From Eledone cirrhosa (taxonomy: Eukaryota): a stretch of 64,000 bases of DNA. The position numbers and the translations under genes were made by a program. The notes under the pieces are model-generated. The model searched no databases, had not been told where the DNA came from, and worked only from the letters and a program-made list of their open reading frames with translations. The DNA lies in contig OZ024743.1 in NCBI GenBank assembly GCA_964016885.1, positions 58,466,001-58,530,000 of the forward strand. Direction: 5' to 3'. Shown in pieces: positions 3,451 to 59,869 of the stretch (positions are counted from its first letter, which is position 1; the number at the start of each line of letters is the position of its first letter).

Positions 3451-3608
3451 GAAACATAGTCGATTTCTTCCACAGAGAGAAGGGGGAGAAAGAGATAAGG
3501 GGTAAGAGAAAGGGTTGAGAAAGATATAAGGGTTAGAGAGAGGGAGGGGGAAAGAGGGGGGAAGAGAAAGAGGTGGAGAGAAAGAGAGAAGGGGTAAGAT
3601 AGAGAGAT

Positions 3609-3639
<31 letters not shown>

Positions 3640-3877
3640 TGTTTCTTTATTAGCCACAGGGGCACAAAAGAAGGGGACAAATACAAAGGGGGAGGTTTAC
3701 ATACAATAAAAACGTGTAAAATATTATCACAAATGCAATTTAAAAATTAGTCGATTTTGCCCAATAGGGGGAGACATTACATATGGGTAACACATACACC
3801 CGAAAAAATGTGCAACCCTCATCTCCAGGAGTACGAAGAGTTTGTACCCCTTTCCTCTCCTCCTCTTTTTCCTCAAC

Positions 3878-6800
3878 CTACAGGCTGATATAGAGAGAAG
3901 GCCCATTCACTCGGGTTTCTCGCCACTTTCACCCACCTTTCATAAAACTTGCTGGGGTACAGCACCTCTCTCTCCATCCTGACTCTTCATCAAAACTTGT
4001 ATTTGAAAAAAAGAATCATTTGTTGGCCGGAGAGAAAGGTGTCTGACCTCAGCCCTTTCAACCTTGTCCACCATACAACCTCTTTCGCCATAGCTATCAC
4101 ACAAAGGAAAACCGCCTCTCCTTCGTTTTTGAAGGAGGGTGGCGGTTTGATCATGACAATGGACACGGTGGTCAACCGGAGTGGTCTCACCCGCGACAAT
4201 AGTCGTTCTACATAGCCCCACAGGTCGGTAACGCCCGGGCAGTGTATGAATGCGTGCGCGACGGTTTCTTCGTCTCGCACGCACCTCGGACAGATCTTTT
4301 TCGAAGGGTCCCTGTCCGGGCGCCCATGTCTGTAGAGCTTGTCTCGAACTGGTAGAGCTCCTCGGTAGCACTGCCAGGCCAGGGACTTTTGGAAGTTGTC
4401 CATCGGTCCCGGCGGAAGGTCCTACCGAACAGACTGGCCAGTTCGTCTTCCTCTACGCCTAGAGTTTCACCAAGCGAGTCGTCGCACTTGCTGAGGATCA
4501 ACCCTCTATAGAATGATGAAGTGGAGTCAACACTAATCGCCGGGTCCGCCAGCCAGAGGGCTGTGAGCGCCTGAGCACATTCGATGTGCCAGTCGCCCAT
4601 TTTCCTCGGTCTTTGCTTGACCCAGGACTGCAGCTCCGTCAGCGAGACGAGTCGTGGTAAGGCTCGCCTTACGAACGGGGCTCACACCGGTTGTCCGGTG
4701 AGGAATACGTAGAGATGCCGCAGCCTGAGCGCGTGTTTGCGCATCGTCAGCCACGGCATTCCCAGCCCTCCGTTGGAAGGGTGTTGGCAGTAGATGGATC
4801 TTCTCACCAAAGGAGCCCGCCTCTTCCAAAGGAATTGGAAGAGCGCGCGCTCCATTTTGGTGAGCGTTTTGGCTGGACAAGGCACGATGGTCAAGCGGTA
4901 GTAGATGGCGGACGCTATAAAAGTGTTCGCCACCTCCGCTCGACCTTTCATGGATAGTTTGCACTCGGCCCACTTCTGGGTGAGTGCCATCACCTCGTTC
5001 CAGTTCTTATCCACATGGATATCTTGACCAAAGCAGACCCTGAGCAGCTTTACCGATCCTTCCGTCCAGCGTCCGACGACGCCATCGGAAGGCATCGCTT
5101 TGCCTCTCCACGATCCGATTTGCAAACCGATGGACTTGTCCCGGTTCAGCTTCGCTCCTGTGAAACTTTCCCATTCCCGGTTCCAGAGAGATGCCCTGCA
5201 ATAGCTCCAACTTCCACAGTAGTGGCTCGAGAGTCAGTACGTACAGAAGGGAGGAGAGAGGGCATCACTGTCGAATGGATCGCATGATATAGAATGGCTC
5301 CGAGAGGTAGCCGTTCACCTTGACCTTTGTGCAGATATTGCTGTTGTGCATTGCAGCAATCCAGCCCCTGAACACGGGTCCGAAGCCTAACGCCTCGAGC
5401 ACCGCATCCAGGTAACGATGGTCAACCCTATCGAAAGCCTTAGACTGATCCAAGTTGATCAGGGCCCCACCGAAGCCGGGTTTATACCCTACCCTCTCTA
5501 GGATATATCGCATGAGGTGGAGGTTGTCGTATATGGACCTGGTCGGGATTGCGCATGTCTGCCACCAGGTTCTCGACGACAAGCGTCAGCCTCTTTGCCA
5601 ACACCTTGGCCAAAATCTGTAACTCTGTGTTTAGCAGAGTGATGGGCCGGAAGTTGCCTATGTCATCCCCCTTATTCTCGTCCTTCGTGACTTGTGTGAC
5701 TACGCCCCCGGTCACAGAACTGGGAATTCTCCCGTTCTGCTGCCACTTGCAGTAGACCGCTTCCAGGAGACCAGACAATAAATCCGGCATTGCTACTAAA
5801 ATTCGTAGGGTAGACCGTCGAGACCTGGAGATTTGCGTTTGCCGCATTGGCTCAGTGCGTCCCCTATCTCAGCGGCTGAAATCGGCTTTTCGCAGAACTT
5901 CTCGCTGTCCGAGAGTTGCGGTAGGCCGTCGAGTTATGGACCGAAATCCATAGCCCCTCCTGGCACGCCGCCCTTCCCGAATAGTTGAGCAAAGTGCCAC
6001 TGAAAGGCCGTACACATCTGCTTCGGCTCACGTATCACGCGTCCGTCTTGGTCCTTCGTAGACCGAATCGTGGACATGTTGCCACTTTTTTCCTCCGTCA
6101 CTAGGGCCCAGCTAACGGACTTTGGCCCCCTCGTTACCCAGAGGACGTATTTTGCTCCTGACAACGCAGCCCTCGTGCTTTGCGTCGAAGAACTGGTCCA
6201 ATGCCGTTCTCGTTGCTAGCACGCTGGCTAAGTTGCCACTTCTAATTGCCTCTTCTACATTATCAACCAGTTCCTTCTCTGTCCTATTTCTATCTAACGC
6301 TAATTCTTTACTAAAAACTAACGAGTCTAATCTAACTGCCCTCTTGAGAGAGTACTACCATCTGTTTTTGGCAATGGCCCCTGACAAGTGCTGTTTAACT
6401 AAAGTGCTCATCCGTCTACTGAAGGCTTTGCATGTCGGTTACGACAATTTCCGCTTCCAGTAGCCGGGTCCTTATCTATGTGTTCTATCAAGGTTGACCA
6501 TGCTGCTCACTAGTTTGTGATCTGAATAGGCAACCATGAACATTTGTGGACAGCTTAACATGTCCCTATCCTTATTTCTAACTAGAACCCTATCTAGGTA
6601 CGATCTAGATGTTCCGTTGTAATTAGTCCACAGTGGCACAGTCGGAAAATCTAGTCGATATCTATCGGCCAGGTCAAATCTGCCGATAAACTGTTTGAGG
6701 CTGTTACACCCCCCTTTATCGGGACATGCTTCCACATAGTCCCAACGTGCATCTCTGATTCTATTCCAGTCCCCACTAAAAGCAAGGAGCGGGACGTTCC

Positions 6801-7187
6801 CAGAAAAGTCTCTAGACGTTTGATGACGTCTGGCCGCGGTGTCCCGGATGGGGCATATGCGGCCACCAGCCTGAAGGCTCCAGCTTCGATACCGTCAACG
6901 TCTAGGACCACCAGTCGACCCTCCAGGTCCAGATGTACCGTCTGTATTACGTGGCCCAGGTGTTTCCGCCGTAAAACGGCAATCCCCACTCCCCCCGGCT
7001 GACAGAATGATGCGTAGATCTCAAAGTCATCGAAGATGGGGGCCAGCTGTCGCTCGCTGTGGATCCTGGACTCGCAAATGGCTACTACATCCATACTGTG
7101 CGACCTGAGGTCGTTTAAGAGTTGGCCCTGTTTCCAGGGCATCCCCAGGCCGCGTACATTCACACATCCAACTCTTATATTGGCCAT
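3878..7187 (-). pseudogene. Tx1 ORF2 (APE endonuclease-reverse transcriptase), multiple frameshifts
   Basis: VNVRGL, SRSYLDR, YSDHKLV, NFRPITLLN, LDQSKAFDRVDH, GGLGMP, CPRC..ETVAHAFIHC distributed across frames. Confidence 0.92.
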
Positions 7188-7227
7188 GTTGGTTCTGAAA
7201 AGTTAAAAGAAGAGTAGAAGAAAACAC

Positions 7228-9038
7228 TCACCTCTTCGTCTCCAGGGGATCAGGCCGCATGATTTCCATGGGAGTGTTAGAGGGGTTGTCTGGGTGGGTG
7301 GTGTTTTCCAGCGGGGTGGAGAGGAGATGTTTGGTGGGTTGGGGGTGTCTGGTGGGGTGGGGGTGTCTGGGGTGAGGGTGGGGAAACTTTTTAAAAGGAC
7401 GCGGTTAATGGGTTTAACACAAGGATCACCCATGTCCTTAGGAAAGTTTTCCTTTAAAGACTTATAGGTGTCCGTAGGGACCCTAATCATCTTTAAATTA
7501 GGTTTGTCTACACAGTTCGAAAAAGTTTCCCCTTCGATTTTCACCGAAGGGTCGTTGGAGATGACCTCCATTAAAGTTTTGTTTTTACTCTTTATGTATG
7601 TGTAATGTTCTTGTTGTGTTGCGGTGGTTTTTGTCTGTTGTTCTTGTGGGAGCTTTCGTTTTGTTGTAGGTGTTTGGAGTGATGTCGTGGTTTTGTTTTC
7701 GGGACGGGGGTTTTTTGTTTGTAATGTTTGTGTTGTTTGTGTTGGTGGTTATATGTTTGTAGTGATGTTTGTTATTTTTTTGTTCTTGTGGTTTCTTTTC
7801 TTCTTTCTTTTCGAACGGAGAGGCTCTCCCTCATCGTCACTTGGTGATGATGAGGGGGCCTCGTCCGTTGTGGTGTCTGTGTTATTAGGAAGGGGTATGT
7901 TTTGGGGAGCTGTTGTGTTTGTGGGTGTTTTTGCAGTGGTTTTAGGTGGAGTGGGTTGGGTGGGACTGTGCGTGCAGGTTGGTTTGTTGTTCTTGTTTTG
8001 GTTATGTTTGCGTGTTGTTGTTGTTGTTGTTGCGTGTTGTTGTGGTGGTGGTTGTTGTGTTGTTGTTTTGGGTGTTGGCAGTAGTGCCTCTTTTTTTTTG
8101 TAGTTAACTGAGGACAGTAAGCCTTCAGGTGACCTCTGCTTAAACAGTGGTAACATGAAGGCCGCCTACTCTCAACAGAAATGTTTATGTATGAAATTCC
8201 ATCTAGAGGCACACGTTGAGGTATTTTAGCTATCCGTTCTTGCCTCATTTGGACCAGAACTTCCATGCTTGTACCATTGAATGTGCCTCTGAAGGATTTT
8301 CCCACCGAAATGATGGTGTCTTCGTCGAAATCGATGAAGACAGTTAAAACCCACTAGACGTTTACATTTGGTGCAATGTTCGAAATGTTTATCTTTTGTG
8401 TCCTTTTCCCCATACATGTGGGGAAAAAGGTGTAAAGGGAGGACACAATCGGTGATACAGAATATTTTTGTGCCGTCACTTGGTCTTTCAACAACACTAA
8501 AATGCTTCCAAAAAGTTTCCCTAATTCTTTAGAACCAGTTCAATGTCGTTTTGGGTAAATTGAACTGGTTTTTTCGACACATTTGAAACCATACTAAAAA
8601 TTACTTTTAAGGAGAAGTAATGCTGAAAGCACCACTCTCACCAAAAGTTACATACTGTTTTGCATCGCTTAACATTTCCCTAGCATTGGAAATGTTAAGG
8701 TATGTGAACAGTTCCGTCTTTTGGACTGTTTGAGCAAAGGAAATATTTTCCTTGTTCGTGGAGTTGTTCGTGTTGTTCTTGTTGGTGGTGTTGTTGTTAT
8801 CCTTGTTGCTGTTGTTGTTCTTGTTGTCATTATTGTTATTGTTCTGGTCGGTATTGTTTATATTTTGCATGTTATTGGTGTTTGTGTTAGTGTTGATGTT
8901 ACAATCAACGTCCGACATCGTGTTTGCAAAACTGACGAGATTTTCGATGTCTTTCAATGAGGCGGTGAGAGGAGGTGACTGCGAGCTTAACACTCTTACC
9001 GCCTCTCCACCACTTGTAGTACTGAACTCAGCGTCCAT
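7228..9038 (-). pseudogene. Tx1 ORF1 (Gag-like, zinc knuckle), frameshifted
   Basis: CYHCLSRGHLKAYC; homologous to 13025-14896; C-terminus MEIMRPDPLETKR* matches MEIEQLDLQETKR* of copy 2. Confidence 0.8.
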
Positions 9039-9257
9039 GACTGAATGCAAGATTTGTTTACAATTTTTTCACCGACGAAATTTTTTCAAACGAATATTTC
9101 ACCCCAGGGAGGGGTGAAGATGACTTGACTCACCGTCTGAAAGTCCAGACGTGGGGTCAAGCTATAAAATAGTATCAAATTTAACAATAAATCTTTGATT
9201 TCTTACTTAGAAAATCAACAAAAATTAACCAGAGAACTGGCACAGGTCTCAAGTAAA

Positions 9258-9314
<57 letters not shown>

Positions 9315-9573
9315 TAGATAGATCGATAGATAGATACATTTTTTTTATTTGCCACAAGGGCACATAAGAAAAGGGGACAATACAAAGACATGCCGGGGAT
9401 TTTACATACAGTCGGGTAAAAAATATAAAAACAAAGAATTACAACAATCGAAAGCGCCAATAGGGGGGAAGCGCCACAAATGGGTTGTTTAATACCCCGT
9501 CGATAGAACAACCCTCAACTGCAGGAGCGCGTTGTGCAAGTGCTCCTTTCTTTCTTTTGCTCTCTTCTTCAAC

Positions 9574-12500
9574 CTACAGGCTTATAAACAGAGAAGGCGC
9601 AATCACTCGGGCCATTTTCGCTTCATTCACCTAACTTTCAGTAAATTTACTGGGGTGCAGAGCCTCTCTCTCCACTCTGATTCTCCTTCTAAAGTGATAC
9701 TTAAAGAAGGGAATCAATTGTTGTCCGGAGAGAAAGGCATCTGTCCTCAGTCCTCTCAATCTCGTCCACCATAAAACTTCTTTCACCATGGCCACCGTAC
9801 AAAGGAAAACTGCCTCTCTTTCGTTTTTGAAAGAGGCTGGAGGTTTGATCCTTACTATGGAATCGGCAGTCAACTGGATTTGTCCCATATGCGACAGAAG
9901 TTGTTCTGCATAGTTTCACAGGTCGGTTACGCCCGGGCAGTGTACAATTGCGTGCAGGACTGTTTCAATGTCCTGCGCGCATCTTGGACACGTCCTTTTT
10001 GAAGGATCCCTGCCGGAGCGTCCGTGCCTGTAGATCTTGTCACGAACCGGTAGAGTTCGGTAGCACTGCCAGGCCAGGGACCTCTGGAAGTTGTCCCTAG
10101 GTCCCGGGTGGAAAGTCCTATCAAACAGACTGATGAGCTCATCGTCTTCGACGCCCAGAGTCTCTCCGAGCACGTCATCGCCCTTGTAACGTACAATCCC
10201 TCTATAGAATGTCGAAGTGGAGTCTCCACTGATTGCTGCGCCGGCTTGCCAGAGTACTGTAAGCGCCTGAGCGCATTCACTGTGCCAGGCGCCCATCGAT
10301 TTCGGTCTTTCTTGACCCAGGACTGCAGCTCCGTCAGCGAGACGAGCTGTGGCAAAACCTGTCTCACAAACGGTGCCCACACCGGTTGGGGGTCGGTGAG
10401 GAATACCTGGAGATGCCGCAGCCTCAGCGCATGTTTGCGCATCATCAGCCACGGCATTCCCAGCCCTCCGTTGGAAGGGTGCTGACAGCAGACGGATCTT
10501 CTCACTAGCGGAGCCTGCTTCTTCCACAGAAACTGAAAGAGCATGCGTTCCATCTTGGCGAGGTGTTCACGGGGACAAGGCACGACAGTCAAGCCGTAGT
10601 AGATGACGGACGCTATGAAAGTGTTCGCCACATCCGCTCGACCTTTCAAGGACAGTTTGCACTCTGCCCACTTCTGGGTGAGTGCAAACACCTTGGCCGT
10701 GACCTCGTTCCAGTTTTTTCTACACCTGGAGGTCTAGACCGAACCAGACCCCGAGCAATTTCACCGGTCCGTCCGTCCAGCGTCCAACGACGCTGTCGGA
10801 CGTCATCGGTTTGCCTCTCCACGTAGCGAGTTGCAAACCGACAGACTTGTACGGGTGTAGTTTTGCTCCCGTCAGCGCGTTTCGTATTCTTTCAGTAAGT
10901 TGCCGATCACCCCGTCGGCATAAGCCGACGCCGCTTTGCGCATTCCTGGTTCTAGAGGGATGCCCTAAAACATCTCCAATTTCCGCAGTAGTGGCTCTAG
11001 AGTCAATACATACAGAATTGAGGAGAGAGGGCATCCCTGTCGAATGGAACGTGTGATTGCGAACGGTTCCGATAGGTAGCCGTTCACCTTGACCCTCGAG
11101 AAAATGCTGGTGTGCATCGCCTCGATCCAGCCTCTGAACACGAGACCGAAACCGGCCGACTTGAGAACCGCTTTCAAGTATCGATGGTCGACCCTATCGA
11201 ATGCCTTAGACTGATCCAAATTGATCAGGGCCCCACCGAAGCTGGGTTTACTACCCACCCTCTCTATGATGTATCGCATGAGGTGGAGGTTGTCGTGTAT
11301 GGACCTGGTCGGGATTGCGCACGTTTGCGCTTTCCCTAACAGGTTCTCGACGACAAGCGCCAACCTCGTCGCTAACACCTTGGCTAAAATCTGTAACTCT
11401 GTGTTGAGCAGAGTTATGAGCCTGAAGTTGTTAATTTCGTCCCCCTTGTTCTCGTCTTTCCTGATCAGCGTTACTACGCCCTTGCCTGCAGAATTGGGAA
11501 TTCTCCCGTTCTGCTGCCAATTGCAGTAGACGGCTTCGAGGACGCCAGAGAACAAGTTCGGCATGTCTATGTAAAACTCATAGGGTAGACCATCTAGACC
11601 GGGTGACTTGCGTTTCCCGCAGCGGCCCAGAGCGTCCCGTATCTCAGTGTCCGTGATTGGTCTATCGCAGAATTCGGCGTCCGTGTTCGAGAGACGCGGT
11701 AGGCCGTCGAGGTATGAACTAAAGTCCATTGCCCCGTTCGACTCACCGTCGTTCTGCTCAAACAGTCGCGCAAAGTGCTGCTGAAAGGCCGCGCACATTT
11801 GCTTGGGGTCAAGTAGCACGCGTCCGTTTTGATCTTTCAAAGACCGAATCGTGGACTTGTTGCTACTTTTTGCCTCCGCCACTCGCGCCCAGCTGACAGC
11901 TTTCGCTCCTTCATTTCCTAGAGCAAGTGTTTTTCTTCTGACCACGCAGCCTTCGTGTTTCGCATCGAAGAACTGGTCCAGTGCCGTTCTCGACGCTAAC
12001 ATTCTAGCCGCATTGCCACTTCTAAGTGTCTCTTCTACCTTGGCTTTTAGTTCTCTTTCTAGTTTGTTTTTCTCTAAGGCTAACTCTCTGCTAAAACCTA
12101 TCGATTCTATTCTAATTGCTTTCTTGAGAGAGTACCACCATCTATTGTTGACGATGGTTCCTGTTAACTGTTGCTTGACTAGTTTACTTATCCGTTCACT
12201 ATAAGCTTTACGTGCCGGCAACGACACGTTAAGCTTCCAGTATCCGGGTCCTTGTTTATGTGTTCTAACACGGTTGATTAAGTAGACGACTAATTTGTGA
12301 TCTGAATAGGCAACCATGTACATTCGTCGACAGCTTAACATCTCCTTGTCCCTTTCTCTCATGAAGAACCTATCTAAATACGATCTAGATGTTCCGCTGC
12401 GGTTTGCCCACGTCCACTGTGGTGCAGTCGGGAAATCCAGTAGATACCTATCGGCCAGTTGGAATTGGCCGATTAAAGTTTTGAGGCTGTTGCACCCCGC

Positions 12501-12983
12501 TCTACTGGGACATGCTCCCACATAGTCCCATCGTGCATCTAGGATACCATTCCAGTCCCACACTAAAAGTAAGGAGCGAGACGTTCCCAGAAAGGACTCT
12601 AGACGCTTAAAGAAGTCAGGCCGTGATTGCGATTGCCCGGTCGGGGCATAAACGGCTACCAGTCTGAAGGCTCCACCTCCAATACTGTTCACGTCTAGGA
12701 CTACCAGTCTACCCTCCGGGTCCAAGTGTACTTGCTGTACTTCGACGTCCAGGTTCTTCCGAAACATGACAACCACTCCACCCCCACCTCCTGGCTGACA
12801 GAGAGATGCGTAGATCTCAAAGTCGTCGAAGATGGGGGTTAGTTGCTGCCTGTTGTGGATCCTGAACTCGGTGATGGCTATCACATCCGTACCATGTGAC
12901 CTAAGGTCGTTTAAAAGTTGGCACTGTTTCCAGGGCATCCCTAGGCCACGCACATTCACGCTTCCAACTCGTAAACTAGCCAT
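9574..12983 (-). pseudogene. Tx1 ORF2 (APE-RT); first 672 codons open, then frameshifts and a disrupted YADD region
   Basis: KSPGLDGLPYEFY, LDQSKAFDRVDH, SIRQGCPLS, CPRC..ETVLHAIVHC. Confidence 0.93.
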
Positions 12984-13024
12984 GTTGGTGAAGAAGAGTT
13001 GGTGAAAAAGGGCGAAAGGTGCAC

Positions 13025-14896
13025 TTACCTTTTCGTTTCCTGGAGATCGAGTTGTTCAATCTCCATTTGGGTGCTGGATGGGGTGTTGGGTGGGGTGGGG
13101 AAATATTTTAACAGGACGCGGTTGATGGGTTTCTTGCAGGGGTTGCCCACGTCCTGTGAACATTTATTGTTTAGGTCATTATAGGTTTCCATAGAAACCC
13201 TTATAAGTTTAAGGTGTGGAGACGATTCTGCCTTGACGAAAGTTTTGCCCTCCGTCTCCACCTTGGGGTATTGGGAGATGACCTCCATCAAATCCTTGCT
13301 ATTTGTGTTGATATATGCGTATTGTTGTTTGTGTTTTTGTTGTGTTGTTTTAGTTTGTTGTTCGTCCGGAAGTTTTCTTTTTATGGTGGGTGCTTGTGTT
13401 TGGGGTGGTATTGGTGTTGGTTTTGCTGATAGGAGGATGTTTGACTGTGGTGTTGTTTGTGTTGTTGTTTGTGTCTGTGGTTGTGTATTGGTCTTGGTTA
13501 TTGGAGTTTTGGGGGTTTTGTGGTGTCCCTTTTTTTGTTTTTTAGATTTCCGCGGCTCTCCCTCTTCTTCACTTAAAGAAGGAGAAGCAGCTTCATCCGT
13601 CGATGAATAATCATCGTCAGGTGTGTGGGGTAGGGGTATGTTGTGTGGTGGTAGTGTTTGATGGAGTGGGATGGGGTGGGGCTGTGTCCTTCAGGGGTGT
13701 TGTCTCTGTTTTTTCTGTTGTTGTTGGTTGAGTGTCTGTTTGTTTTGGTGTGGTTGTTCGTTTCGTCTGTCGTTGTACTTGTGGTGGTGGTGGTTGTTTT
13801 GGTGTTGGTGTTGGTAATAGTGTTTTTTTAATGATGTTGTTGTTGTGTATTTGTGAAGGGCAAGAGGCTTTTAGGTGTGCTGTGCTACAACATCGAAAGC
13901 AATGAAATTTTCGTCCTTCTACCGAAATGTTTATTTTGTTTTTGTCATCGATGACGACTTTTTCGGGTATTTTGGAGATTCTCTCCGACCTCATTTGCAA
14001 CAGAATCTCCAAATCAGTACCCGCCCACCTTTGTCGAATAGACTTTCGTATCGAAAGAATCATATCAGTTTCTGGCTCTACGAAGCCAGCCAAGATGTTA
14101 ATGTTTGGGGGTATATTTTTTATTTTTATTTTTTGTGTCCTTTTTCCCATGTATATAGGGAAAAAGATGAATGCTTTTGACACTATTGGTGTCACAGAAT
14201 GTTTTTGGGCGAGTGCCTCGCTTTTAAACAGTACGGAAACACTTCCGTATTGTTTTCCTCGTTGGAGAAAATCGATATTTGCTAGAATTTCCTTGAAAGT
14301 AACATCTATATCTGCTTGACTAACAAATATCGGCTTCCTCGTGGAATTGGACACAGTCTTCCTTTATTTCAAGGGGTGTCTTCCTTTATTTCAAGGGGTG
14401 AGTTAATTCTAAACCCACCATTCTCTTCGAAAGTTACACATGTTCTCCCTTGCTGGAGCATATCTCTTGCATTGGAGATGTCCAGATTTATAAAATCTTG
14501 TTTTTTGTTCACTGTGTCAGCGAAAGACATTTTCTTTTTTTGTGTGGTGTTGCTGTTGTTGTTGTTATCGTTGTTAGCCTCGGTGTTGGAAATCTCAGTT
14601 CATTGACGAGGTGAAACTTTATGTGTAGATGTATCTGTGGAGTTGTTAATGTCTTTTTCATGTGTATGTATGTTAATAGGTTTAATGTCTGTGTTTTCAT
14701 GTGAGTTAGTGTTATTTTTCTCCGCTTCAACGGTAGAAATTGTACAATTTTCGAGTGGTAACATTTTTTCCTCTTTGTTGACAGTCGTATCTATGGCGAC
14801 GTCCATAGTAGCAGAAGCAGATATAATGTTAAAATCTGCCTCTTTCTCTCTCTTTTCTCTATTGACGTTCTCCAGCGTTCTCTTCGTGTTATTCAT
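13025..14896 (-). pseudogene. Tx1 ORF1, interrupted
   Basis: CFRCCSTAHLKASC knuckle; 22-bp tandem duplication at 14357-14400; Thr/Pro-rich linker. Confidence 0.8.
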
Positions 14897-15013
14897 GTTT
14901 TATAGTTTGCAAAATTTGATATTTTAAAATGGGATTACCACCCAGCTGACAATTCAGCTTGGGGGTTAATCTACAAAATAATATGTTTTTACAAACAATT
15001 TGTTCTGTTTTTC

Positions 15014-59256: not shown

Positions 59257-59530
59257 ATAAATAAGTAAATTAAATTAAATAAAATAAGATAAATAAATAC
59301 ATACACAAGCACATAAACACACACTAGTCACCCAGCAGACACAACACTATACACACTAGTCACACATCACACATAACACTATACACACACGCAAACGCAT
59401 GCGCAAAGAAGACAAAATAAAATAAGATAAACAAACAAGCAAATAAATAAATAAATATATAGACAGACTGAACACAAAAAAAAAAAATGGCGTAGACATA
59501 CAACACAACAGGAGGAACAATGAATATAAC

Positions 59531-59580
59531 ACCACTGACGATGTTGCAGATGTGCAACGAAAGATTTATGTAAATTATGT
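59531..59580 (+). ncRNA. Hammerhead-like motif in PLE 3' repeat (mirror ~53870-53920 minus)
   Basis: CTGACGA tGTTGCA gatg TGCAAC GAAA gATTTA tg TAAAT TA tg; stem I weak. Confidence 0.6.
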
Positions 59581-59830
59581 AAACTATATATATATGTGTT
59601 TGTCTATATTGTATCTGTATTATTTTTGACCGCCGGTCAGTCAATGGCAACATTGAGGACCGAGTAAGTTAGATCGCAGATATATATATATAAAAGACAG
59701 CGAGAAGCGAAAACCAACCAAACAGTGAGTGTGTTCTGTTATTAATTCTGGCAATATTACGCAAATATGACCCTCCCCAAATATAACAATATCTGTTTCG
59801 ACACACGATTTCATATAAAAAACCTCGCAA

Positions 59831-59869
<39 letters not shown>

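Follow-up and report, generated by a model that had tools for sequence, protein, structure and literature searches.

How does a LINE produce its second protein when its first reading frame ends inside a splice donor? This question is raised by a stretch of 64,000 nucleotides from Eledone cirrhosa (hereafter the window), in which the ORF1 stop codon of one LINE copy forms part of the sequence GAG/GTGAGT. The first-pass annotation proposed that a 37-nt intron begins here, and that its removal would delete the stop and fuse ORF1 to ORF2. ORF2 of L1/Tx1-type elements is thought to arise by re-initiation (PMC5972666, available in part).

Results

An L1/Tx1-type LINE in adjacent copies

The window holds two copies of the same LINE clade, with copy B directly upstream of copy A:

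7228..9038, minus strand: copy A ORF1, frameshifted; CCHC knuckle by eye, without a Pfam match
3878..7187, minus strand: copy A ORF2, APE endonuclease and reverse transcriptase (RT) by homology; stops and frameshifts break the frame
3646..3651, minus strand: copy A AATAAA, about 226 nt past the ORF2 stop and followed by (TATC)n
9340..15010, minus strand: copy B

The copies are 77% identical over ORF2. The ORF1 frame of copy A is confirmed by copy 2, which finishes with the homologous ...DLQETKR and a stop. Pfam domains Exo_endo_phos, RVT_1 and zf-RVT were found in the intact relatives L219 and L198, and the best PDB match of ORF2 is human LINE-1 ORF2p (E 1.9e-46). Judged by homology, the element is thus a LINE of the L1/Tx1 type, with an APE endonuclease, an RT and a C-terminal zinc domain in ORF2. 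A CCHC knuckle can be recognised by eye in ORF1 of both window copies; the Pfam search of ORF1 was empty. As to the Tx1 or the L1 clade, the 100 homologues contain no named Tx1 reference, and the label stays "L1/Tx1-type".

By eye, the 3' ends of the elements adjoin (TATC)n, (TA)n or (ATT)n; some Tx1 families target microsatellites. Copies of different subfamilies stand head to tail at a spacing of about 5.8-5.9 kb, with (TA)n or (TATC)n at the joins (window 3600-15010; G000:C1:36526564/36532380, 87922322/87928216, 35255992/35261891 and 15476238/15482068), which suggests repeated insertion into the same microsatellite. Two copies, L196 (D/G) and L203 (E2/D), have 5' and 3' halves from different subfamilies. 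In all subfamilies the 3'UTR carries the conserved blocks CCCCTATTGG and TTTGTA-TTGTCC ahead of AATAAA, which are possible RT recognition signals. Upstream of copy A ORF1, a GTGAGT in the 5'UTR and a TTCAG 2 bases before the ORF1 ATG (9038) would delimit a 93-nt intron (9133-9041, minus strand), and this acceptor could turn ORF1 into an internal exon of host transcripts. Elsewhere in the window are an inverted duplication of 2.46 kb (53598-56045 / 57405-59866; 98.6% identity, weak RT match) and a second inverted pair of 485 nt (38207-38691 / 40541-41025).

The splice donor at the ORF1 stop is conserved

Both copies end ORF1 within a 5' splice site sequence:

7226..7234, minus strand: copy A 5' splice site, GAG/GTGAGT, with the ORF1 stop TGA (7230-7228); based on sequence, clade-wide conservation and splicing seen in the sister copy L022
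13023..13031, minus strand: copy B 5' splice site, AAG/GTAAGT, with the ORF1 stop TAA; first intron base 13028

We picked 110 loci without regard to the donor and scored the 100 junctions with a mapped ORF2 start. A donor matching the consensus at 8 or more of 9 positions lies 28-55 nt upstream of the ORF2 ATG in 86 of the 100, against 37 of 4,660 background windows; since the junction copies share ancestry, roughly a dozen subfamilies count as independent units. At the protein level the endonucleases of these subfamilies are 59-77% identical, and their tree has three clades. The donor falls in phase 2 of ORF1 in A, B, C, G, H, I and J, in phase 1 in D, E2, F, K, L and M, and in phase 0 in E1. 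Since it is kept in all three phases, neither the protein nor the stop codon explains it. Distant L1-like loci from metagenomes lack it (0 of 9). We conclude from this comparison of sequences that the donor is under selection, and it is almost certainly functional; the annotation was right to place the ORF1 stop in a genuine, usable donor.

Three other uses of the donor were considered and rejected. An intron spanning all of ORF2, for which the ORF2 stop would supply the acceptor, fitted A and B, but G and J have TAA in place of the TAG, and D and F have no tract. For a conserved acceptor inside ORF2 or the 3'UTR, the best columns were shared by only 14 of 24 copies, in mixed frames. Copies starting exactly at the donor, as from first-step cleavage or a lariat template, gave 26 matches against 27 in the control, and none of the 26 then shows an ORF2-start match.

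The proposed fusion intron

The sequence of copy A is as the annotation described it. On the minus strand, the ends GT (7231-7230) and CAG (ending at 7195) enclose a pyrimidine tract and the branch-like motif TTTAAC (7207-7202), and excision of 7231-7195 (37 nt) would read ETKR-TN-MANI in frame, with the ORF2 ATG at 7187.

7188..7231, minus strand: inter-ORF spacer, 44 nt, pyrimidine-rich; holds the proposed intron 7231-7195 with its subfamily-specific CAG

These signals are well kept within subfamily A. Among its 30 copies GT is retained in 29 and AG in all 30 (29 by script and L028 by eye), at a GT..AG length of 31 nt (6 copies), 34 nt (16), 36 nt (1) or 37 nt (7); one further copy has a length of 28 nt. 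None of the 30 subfamily-B copies, all with a perfect donor, has an AG in the spacer before the ORF2 ATG, as in copy B, where no AG lies between the donor and the ATG at 12983. The spacer AG is likewise absent from C, D, F, G, H and K. Seven lineages have one, and the first AG preserves the frame in three of them (A, E1 at 30 nt, and I) and breaks it in E2, J, L and M. Hence, of the conservation that would mark an intron, the GT holds across the family; the AG and the frame are subfamily-specific, and chance could account for them.

Spliced human L1 RNAs leave genomic copies (PMC5860796, available in part). A pattern for the joined form had no match in the whole genome, against 1,411 matches to the same flanks with a gap of 20-50 nt; a pattern for the ORF2 start gave 1,930 further junctions, of which we read 50. 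We also read all 107 A and B copies that depart from the donor after the ORF1 end (46, 11, 26 and 24 matches). Nearly all are point changes or small deletions, and none is a clean splice join to ORF2. In one copy, L073, a deletion to ORF2 codon 28 breaks at the donor, one base off a splice join; another, L156, passes at the donor position into simple-repeat DNA. The lack of intronless copies argues strongly against the fusion, because the RNA from which ORF2p is made would be expected to serve as the preferred template. Animal introns at their shortest usually measure 50-90 nt (PMC13644364, available in part). In the contigs of one run, X4, whose kind is not on record, none of the 13 that cover 7090-7400 has a 31-37-nt joint, and those shown extending upstream of the ORF2 start enter unspliced spacers.

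The removal of an intron of 31-37 nt, or of 50-60 nt ending in the first codons of ORF2, is thus largely refuted, with no intronless copy against 1,411 and the AG missing in most sister subfamilies. In its favour, subfamily A has a fitting GT, tract, branch-like motif, AG and frame, and the frame suits E1 and I as well; we nevertheless regard such an intron as highly improbable, and the 37-nt fusion as very probably not the route to ORF2p.

Some related routes were tried and rejected. A short intron ending at the first AG inside ORF2 gave mixed frames and no joined copies. Frameshift or readthrough across the A spacer would run into a TAA in the ORF2 frame, and ORF1 itself is in another frame. 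The search for ORF2-only copies spliced into the A acceptor gave one match, a small deletion. A separate observation concerns two E1 copies (L198 and L199), in which ORF1 and ORF2 share one frame, divided only by a TAG inside a predicted duplex (below), and readthrough or A-to-I editing of this TAG would fuse them.

Splicing of a sister copy to a sulfotransferase exon

One X4 contig, at depth 115, follows ORF1 up to the donor and then passes into foreign letters (28 on the exon side). These letters occur once in the genome, where they are preceded by a pyrimidine tract and a CAG acceptor and open a 375-codon sulfotransferase exon, on the same strand as the subfamily-A copy L022 and 22,483 nt downstream of it. 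Alone among 30 A copies, L022 has all nine of the nine variants of the contig. The exact joining of this sister copy to a GT-AG acceptor identifies the donor as a functional U2-type 5' splice site, on the evidence of a single contig in a single run. This spliced join is the sole reason to treat X4 as RNA; the run differs in profile from the DNA-like run X1.

L022 is a 5'-truncated A copy standing between two sulfotransferase-like exons (G000:C3:34980313-35005900; L022, L234, L236-L239), a locus in which we found no first exon belonging to the host gene itself. The join is out of frame, and the ORF1 frame stops one codon past it.

We considered whether the donor is a valve that skips ORF2, by which ORF1 would be spliced to any downstream acceptor to give an ORF1-only mRNA and so limit the endonuclease, for example in the soma, with the duplex protecting the replicative form. 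The sole splice seen is of this kind, its ORF1 frame stopping right after the join. The summed depth of X4 contigs, a poor measure, is also higher over ORF1 than over the 5' bins of ORF2, opposite to X1. However, no acceptor is conserved in the element (the best columns reaching 14 of 24 copies in mixed frames), G and J end ORF2 with TAA instead of TAG, and a donor that relies on flanking host acceptors would be hard to select. We consider the valve quite unlikely.

A predicted duplex between the ends of ORF2

The start of the 3'UTR is the reverse complement of the spacer. The two arms, 3.3 kb apart, would form a duplex of about 50 bp:

7182..7252, minus strand: copy A 5' arm (ORF1 end, donor, spacer and ORF2 ATG), predicted pairing
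3818..3886, minus strand: copy A 3' arm (ORF2 stop TAG 3880-3878 and purine-rich 3'UTR start), predicted pairing
12977..13046, minus strand: copy B 5' arm, -57.1 kcal/mol
9512..9583, minus strand: copy B 3' arm (ORF2 stop TAG 9576-9574 and 3'UTR start), predicted pairing

The duplex of copy A has a predicted energy of -63.1 kcal/mol, with 49 Watson-Crick and 5 G-U pairs. The pyrimidine tract that the annotation took for an intron signal is better explained as one arm of this pairing, and the proposed acceptor CAG sits in a bulge.

Of 42 elements examined, 24 passed our filter, with ORF2 start and stop both mapped. In 21 of the 24, the ORF2 stop and the next 60 nt are the best partner of the junction in the whole element, and in 22 no more than 1 of 100 dinucleotide shuffles attains the energy. 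The two exceptions are L196, the cross-clade D/G mosaic, which is without the duplex, and L216, in which 6 of 100 shuffles reach the energy and which may belong genuinely to subfamily J and have a weak duplex. As presumed mosaics, L196 was left out of a 23-copy comparison and L196, L203 and L216 out of a 21-copy set. Mean pairing energy is -62.8 kcal/mol for arms of the same subfamily, -55.9 within a clade and -46.1 between clades; a junction pairs best within its own clade in 22 of 23 cases, but within its own subfamily in only 12. The register is constant, with the AUG context opposite the ORF2 stop and the donor opposite +31 to +40. Comparable pairing is absent from all eight distant L1-like loci.

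Two-sided changes occur in 18 of 32 shared column pairs across the 21 copies, and paired cells amount to 78%, against 71±1% when partners are re-dealt (maximum 75% in 1,000). The clearest two-sided changes flank the AUG: in G, G-C becomes A-T at +3 and C-G becomes T-A at -5, and in E1, C-G becomes T-A at -1. As the copies are related and the low-complexity middle of the alignment is uncertain, we take this covariation as support rather than proof. Global folding of 3.7-3.9 kb recovers the duplex in four of five elements; in window copy A it favours a local hairpin, and none of the 73 arm bases joins the duplex. Hairpins formed locally over the donor, considered separately and rejected, recur by eye and are not significant (z -3.4 to +0.8). 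In subfamily F, the spacers of L204, L206, L210 and L211 contain a donor complement of 7-9 nt that would offer a local hairpin alternative to the long duplex.

The complementarity could in principle have come from template switching between the ORF2 ends at the DNA level and, like the donor, be carried along without function. Purine-rich and pyrimidine-rich tracts pair readily, and non-cognate pairs reach about -46 kcal/mol. Against this, three deep clades with different arm sequences keep one register, shuffles matched in composition are far weaker, the G-U bias makes the sense duplex more stable than the antisense in 20 of 23 copies, and the donor outlasts the changes of ORF1 frame. We consider a functionless origin very unlikely. 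Pairing above shuffles, with compensatory changes among related copies, supports a predicted long-range RNA duplex that is conserved, and probably one selected at the RNA level.

This predicted duplex would cover the donor. In 20 of 21 copies its 3' arm would mask 5-8 of the 9 donor bases, and in B, F and G the arm contains an anti-donor sequence; part of the donor core is left unpaired in A3, C, D and H. These features bear on the possibility that the duplex is a cytoplasmic translation device only and the donor is kept for a separate reason. Such a device might mask the ORF2 AUG until ribosomes on ORF1 open the duplex, or might return ribosomes that reach the ORF2 stop to the ORF2 start and so aid cis-preference. 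The most constant part of the duplex, the AUG context with the ORF2 stop (16-19 of 21 copies), speaks for such a device, and structure-dependent termination-reinitiation has been described for SART1 and proposed for LINE-1 (PMC5972666, available in part). Against it, the 3' arm extends over and beyond the donor, with an anti-donor in B, F and G, and the conservation of the donor in three phases is left unexplained. We think this explanation unlikely, while granting it some weight.

A possible joint role for the donor and the duplex

We reasoned that the donor in the spacer and the complementarity at the ORF2 end may together be a timed switch rather than a 37-nt intron, and we put the probability of this at roughly 45%. 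During transcription of the 3.3 kb of ORF2 the donor would be exposed, and U1 snRNP may bind it and hold off premature cleavage. Once transcribed, the 3' arm would pair over the donor, closing ORF2 into a predicted loop with the ORF2 AUG set against the ORF2 stop. Masking of the donor would then free the element's own AATAAA, which lies 190-310 nt past the ORF2 stop in most copies, and leave the bicistronic RNA unspliced. Ribosomes that finish ORF1 in the cytoplasm would unwind the duplex, thereby limiting re-initiation at ORF2. Where U1 wins, as in copies within host genes, ORF1 would be spliced to a host exon.

The anatomy fits a switch between U1 binding and RNA structure at a poly(A) signal, like that of foamy virus. 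There, U1 binding without productive splicing suppresses polyadenylation, and an alternative RNA structure that blocks U1 permits it (PMC3694450, available in part). That case concerns a retroviral LTR with a local structure and a donor near the signal, as far as the available text goes, whereas here a LINE has a predicted 3.3-kb duplex with a putative function of this kind. Some findings count against the switch. The donor is 3.6 kb from AATAAA, and the hexamers to be guarded within ORF2 are few (0-2 in each of 24 copies). L022, whose predicted duplex is intact (-63.3 kcal/mol), was nonetheless spliced beyond the poly(A) signal that it carries. Separately, ORF1 holds 0-8 poly(A) hexamers per 2 kb, by our estimate about what its A-richness leads one to expect. 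That U1 binding followed by duplex formation is the reason for both donor and duplex seems to us a tentative reading, at somewhat less than even odds. Evasion of HUSH, another candidate role for the donor, was rejected; that protection does not need a 5' splice site (PMC8770142, available in part).

Discussion

Like other L1/Tx1 LINEs, this element has a bicistronic layout of ORF1 and an APE-RT-zinc ORF2, a short spacer and a 3' end with AATAAA. Unlike them, it has a near-perfect donor at the ORF1 stop across subfamilies, and a predicted duplex that encloses ORF2. Functional donors in LINE RNA are familiar from human L1, where splicing damages the template and yields SpIREs; those sites lie within the 5'UTR and ORF1, and their spliced products persist as genomic copies (PMC5860796, in its available part). 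Here, by contrast, the donor is at the end of ORF1 and has no set acceptor, and our reading of the copies turned up no clean spliced one. RNA structure at the border of ORF1 and ORF2 affects ORF2 output in SART1 as well, through an overlapping stop-start and a downstream structure (PMC5972666, again in part), whereas the 28-55-nt spacer described here is predicted to pair with the far end of ORF2. Finally, Lyosin-type exons resemble the L022 transcript in that an exon derived from L1 ORF1 is joined to a host exon. They are in-frame domesticated isoforms (PMC12129022, available in part); the L022-sulfotransferase join is out of frame, and its donor is built into every copy. Our search, which left most subscription journals and the Repbase reports outside its scope, found no report of a conserved donor at the ORF1 stop or of a duplex enclosing ORF2 in LINEs, and priority is not established.

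It is a long-standing question in the field how a bicistronic LINE RNA avoids being spliced or polyadenylated too early, and how its ORF2 comes to be translated sparingly and in cis. A predicted duplex that sets the ORF2 start against its stop, over a conserved donor, is a compact cis-element that could link those steps. A fuller proposal, which we offer as speculation with the odds well against it as a whole, is that this clade evolved a U1 docking site at the ORF1 stop and a U1-mimicking anti-donor in the 3'UTR, such that completion of ORF2 would close a 3.3-kb loop, switch the RNA from a spliceosome-engaged to an export-ready state and control the translation of ORF2. Thousands of copies would, incidentally, be donors ready to graft ORF1 onto host exons. 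The donor makes these copies, in a 3-Gb genome, potential exon traps, with one case, in a sulfotransferase cluster.
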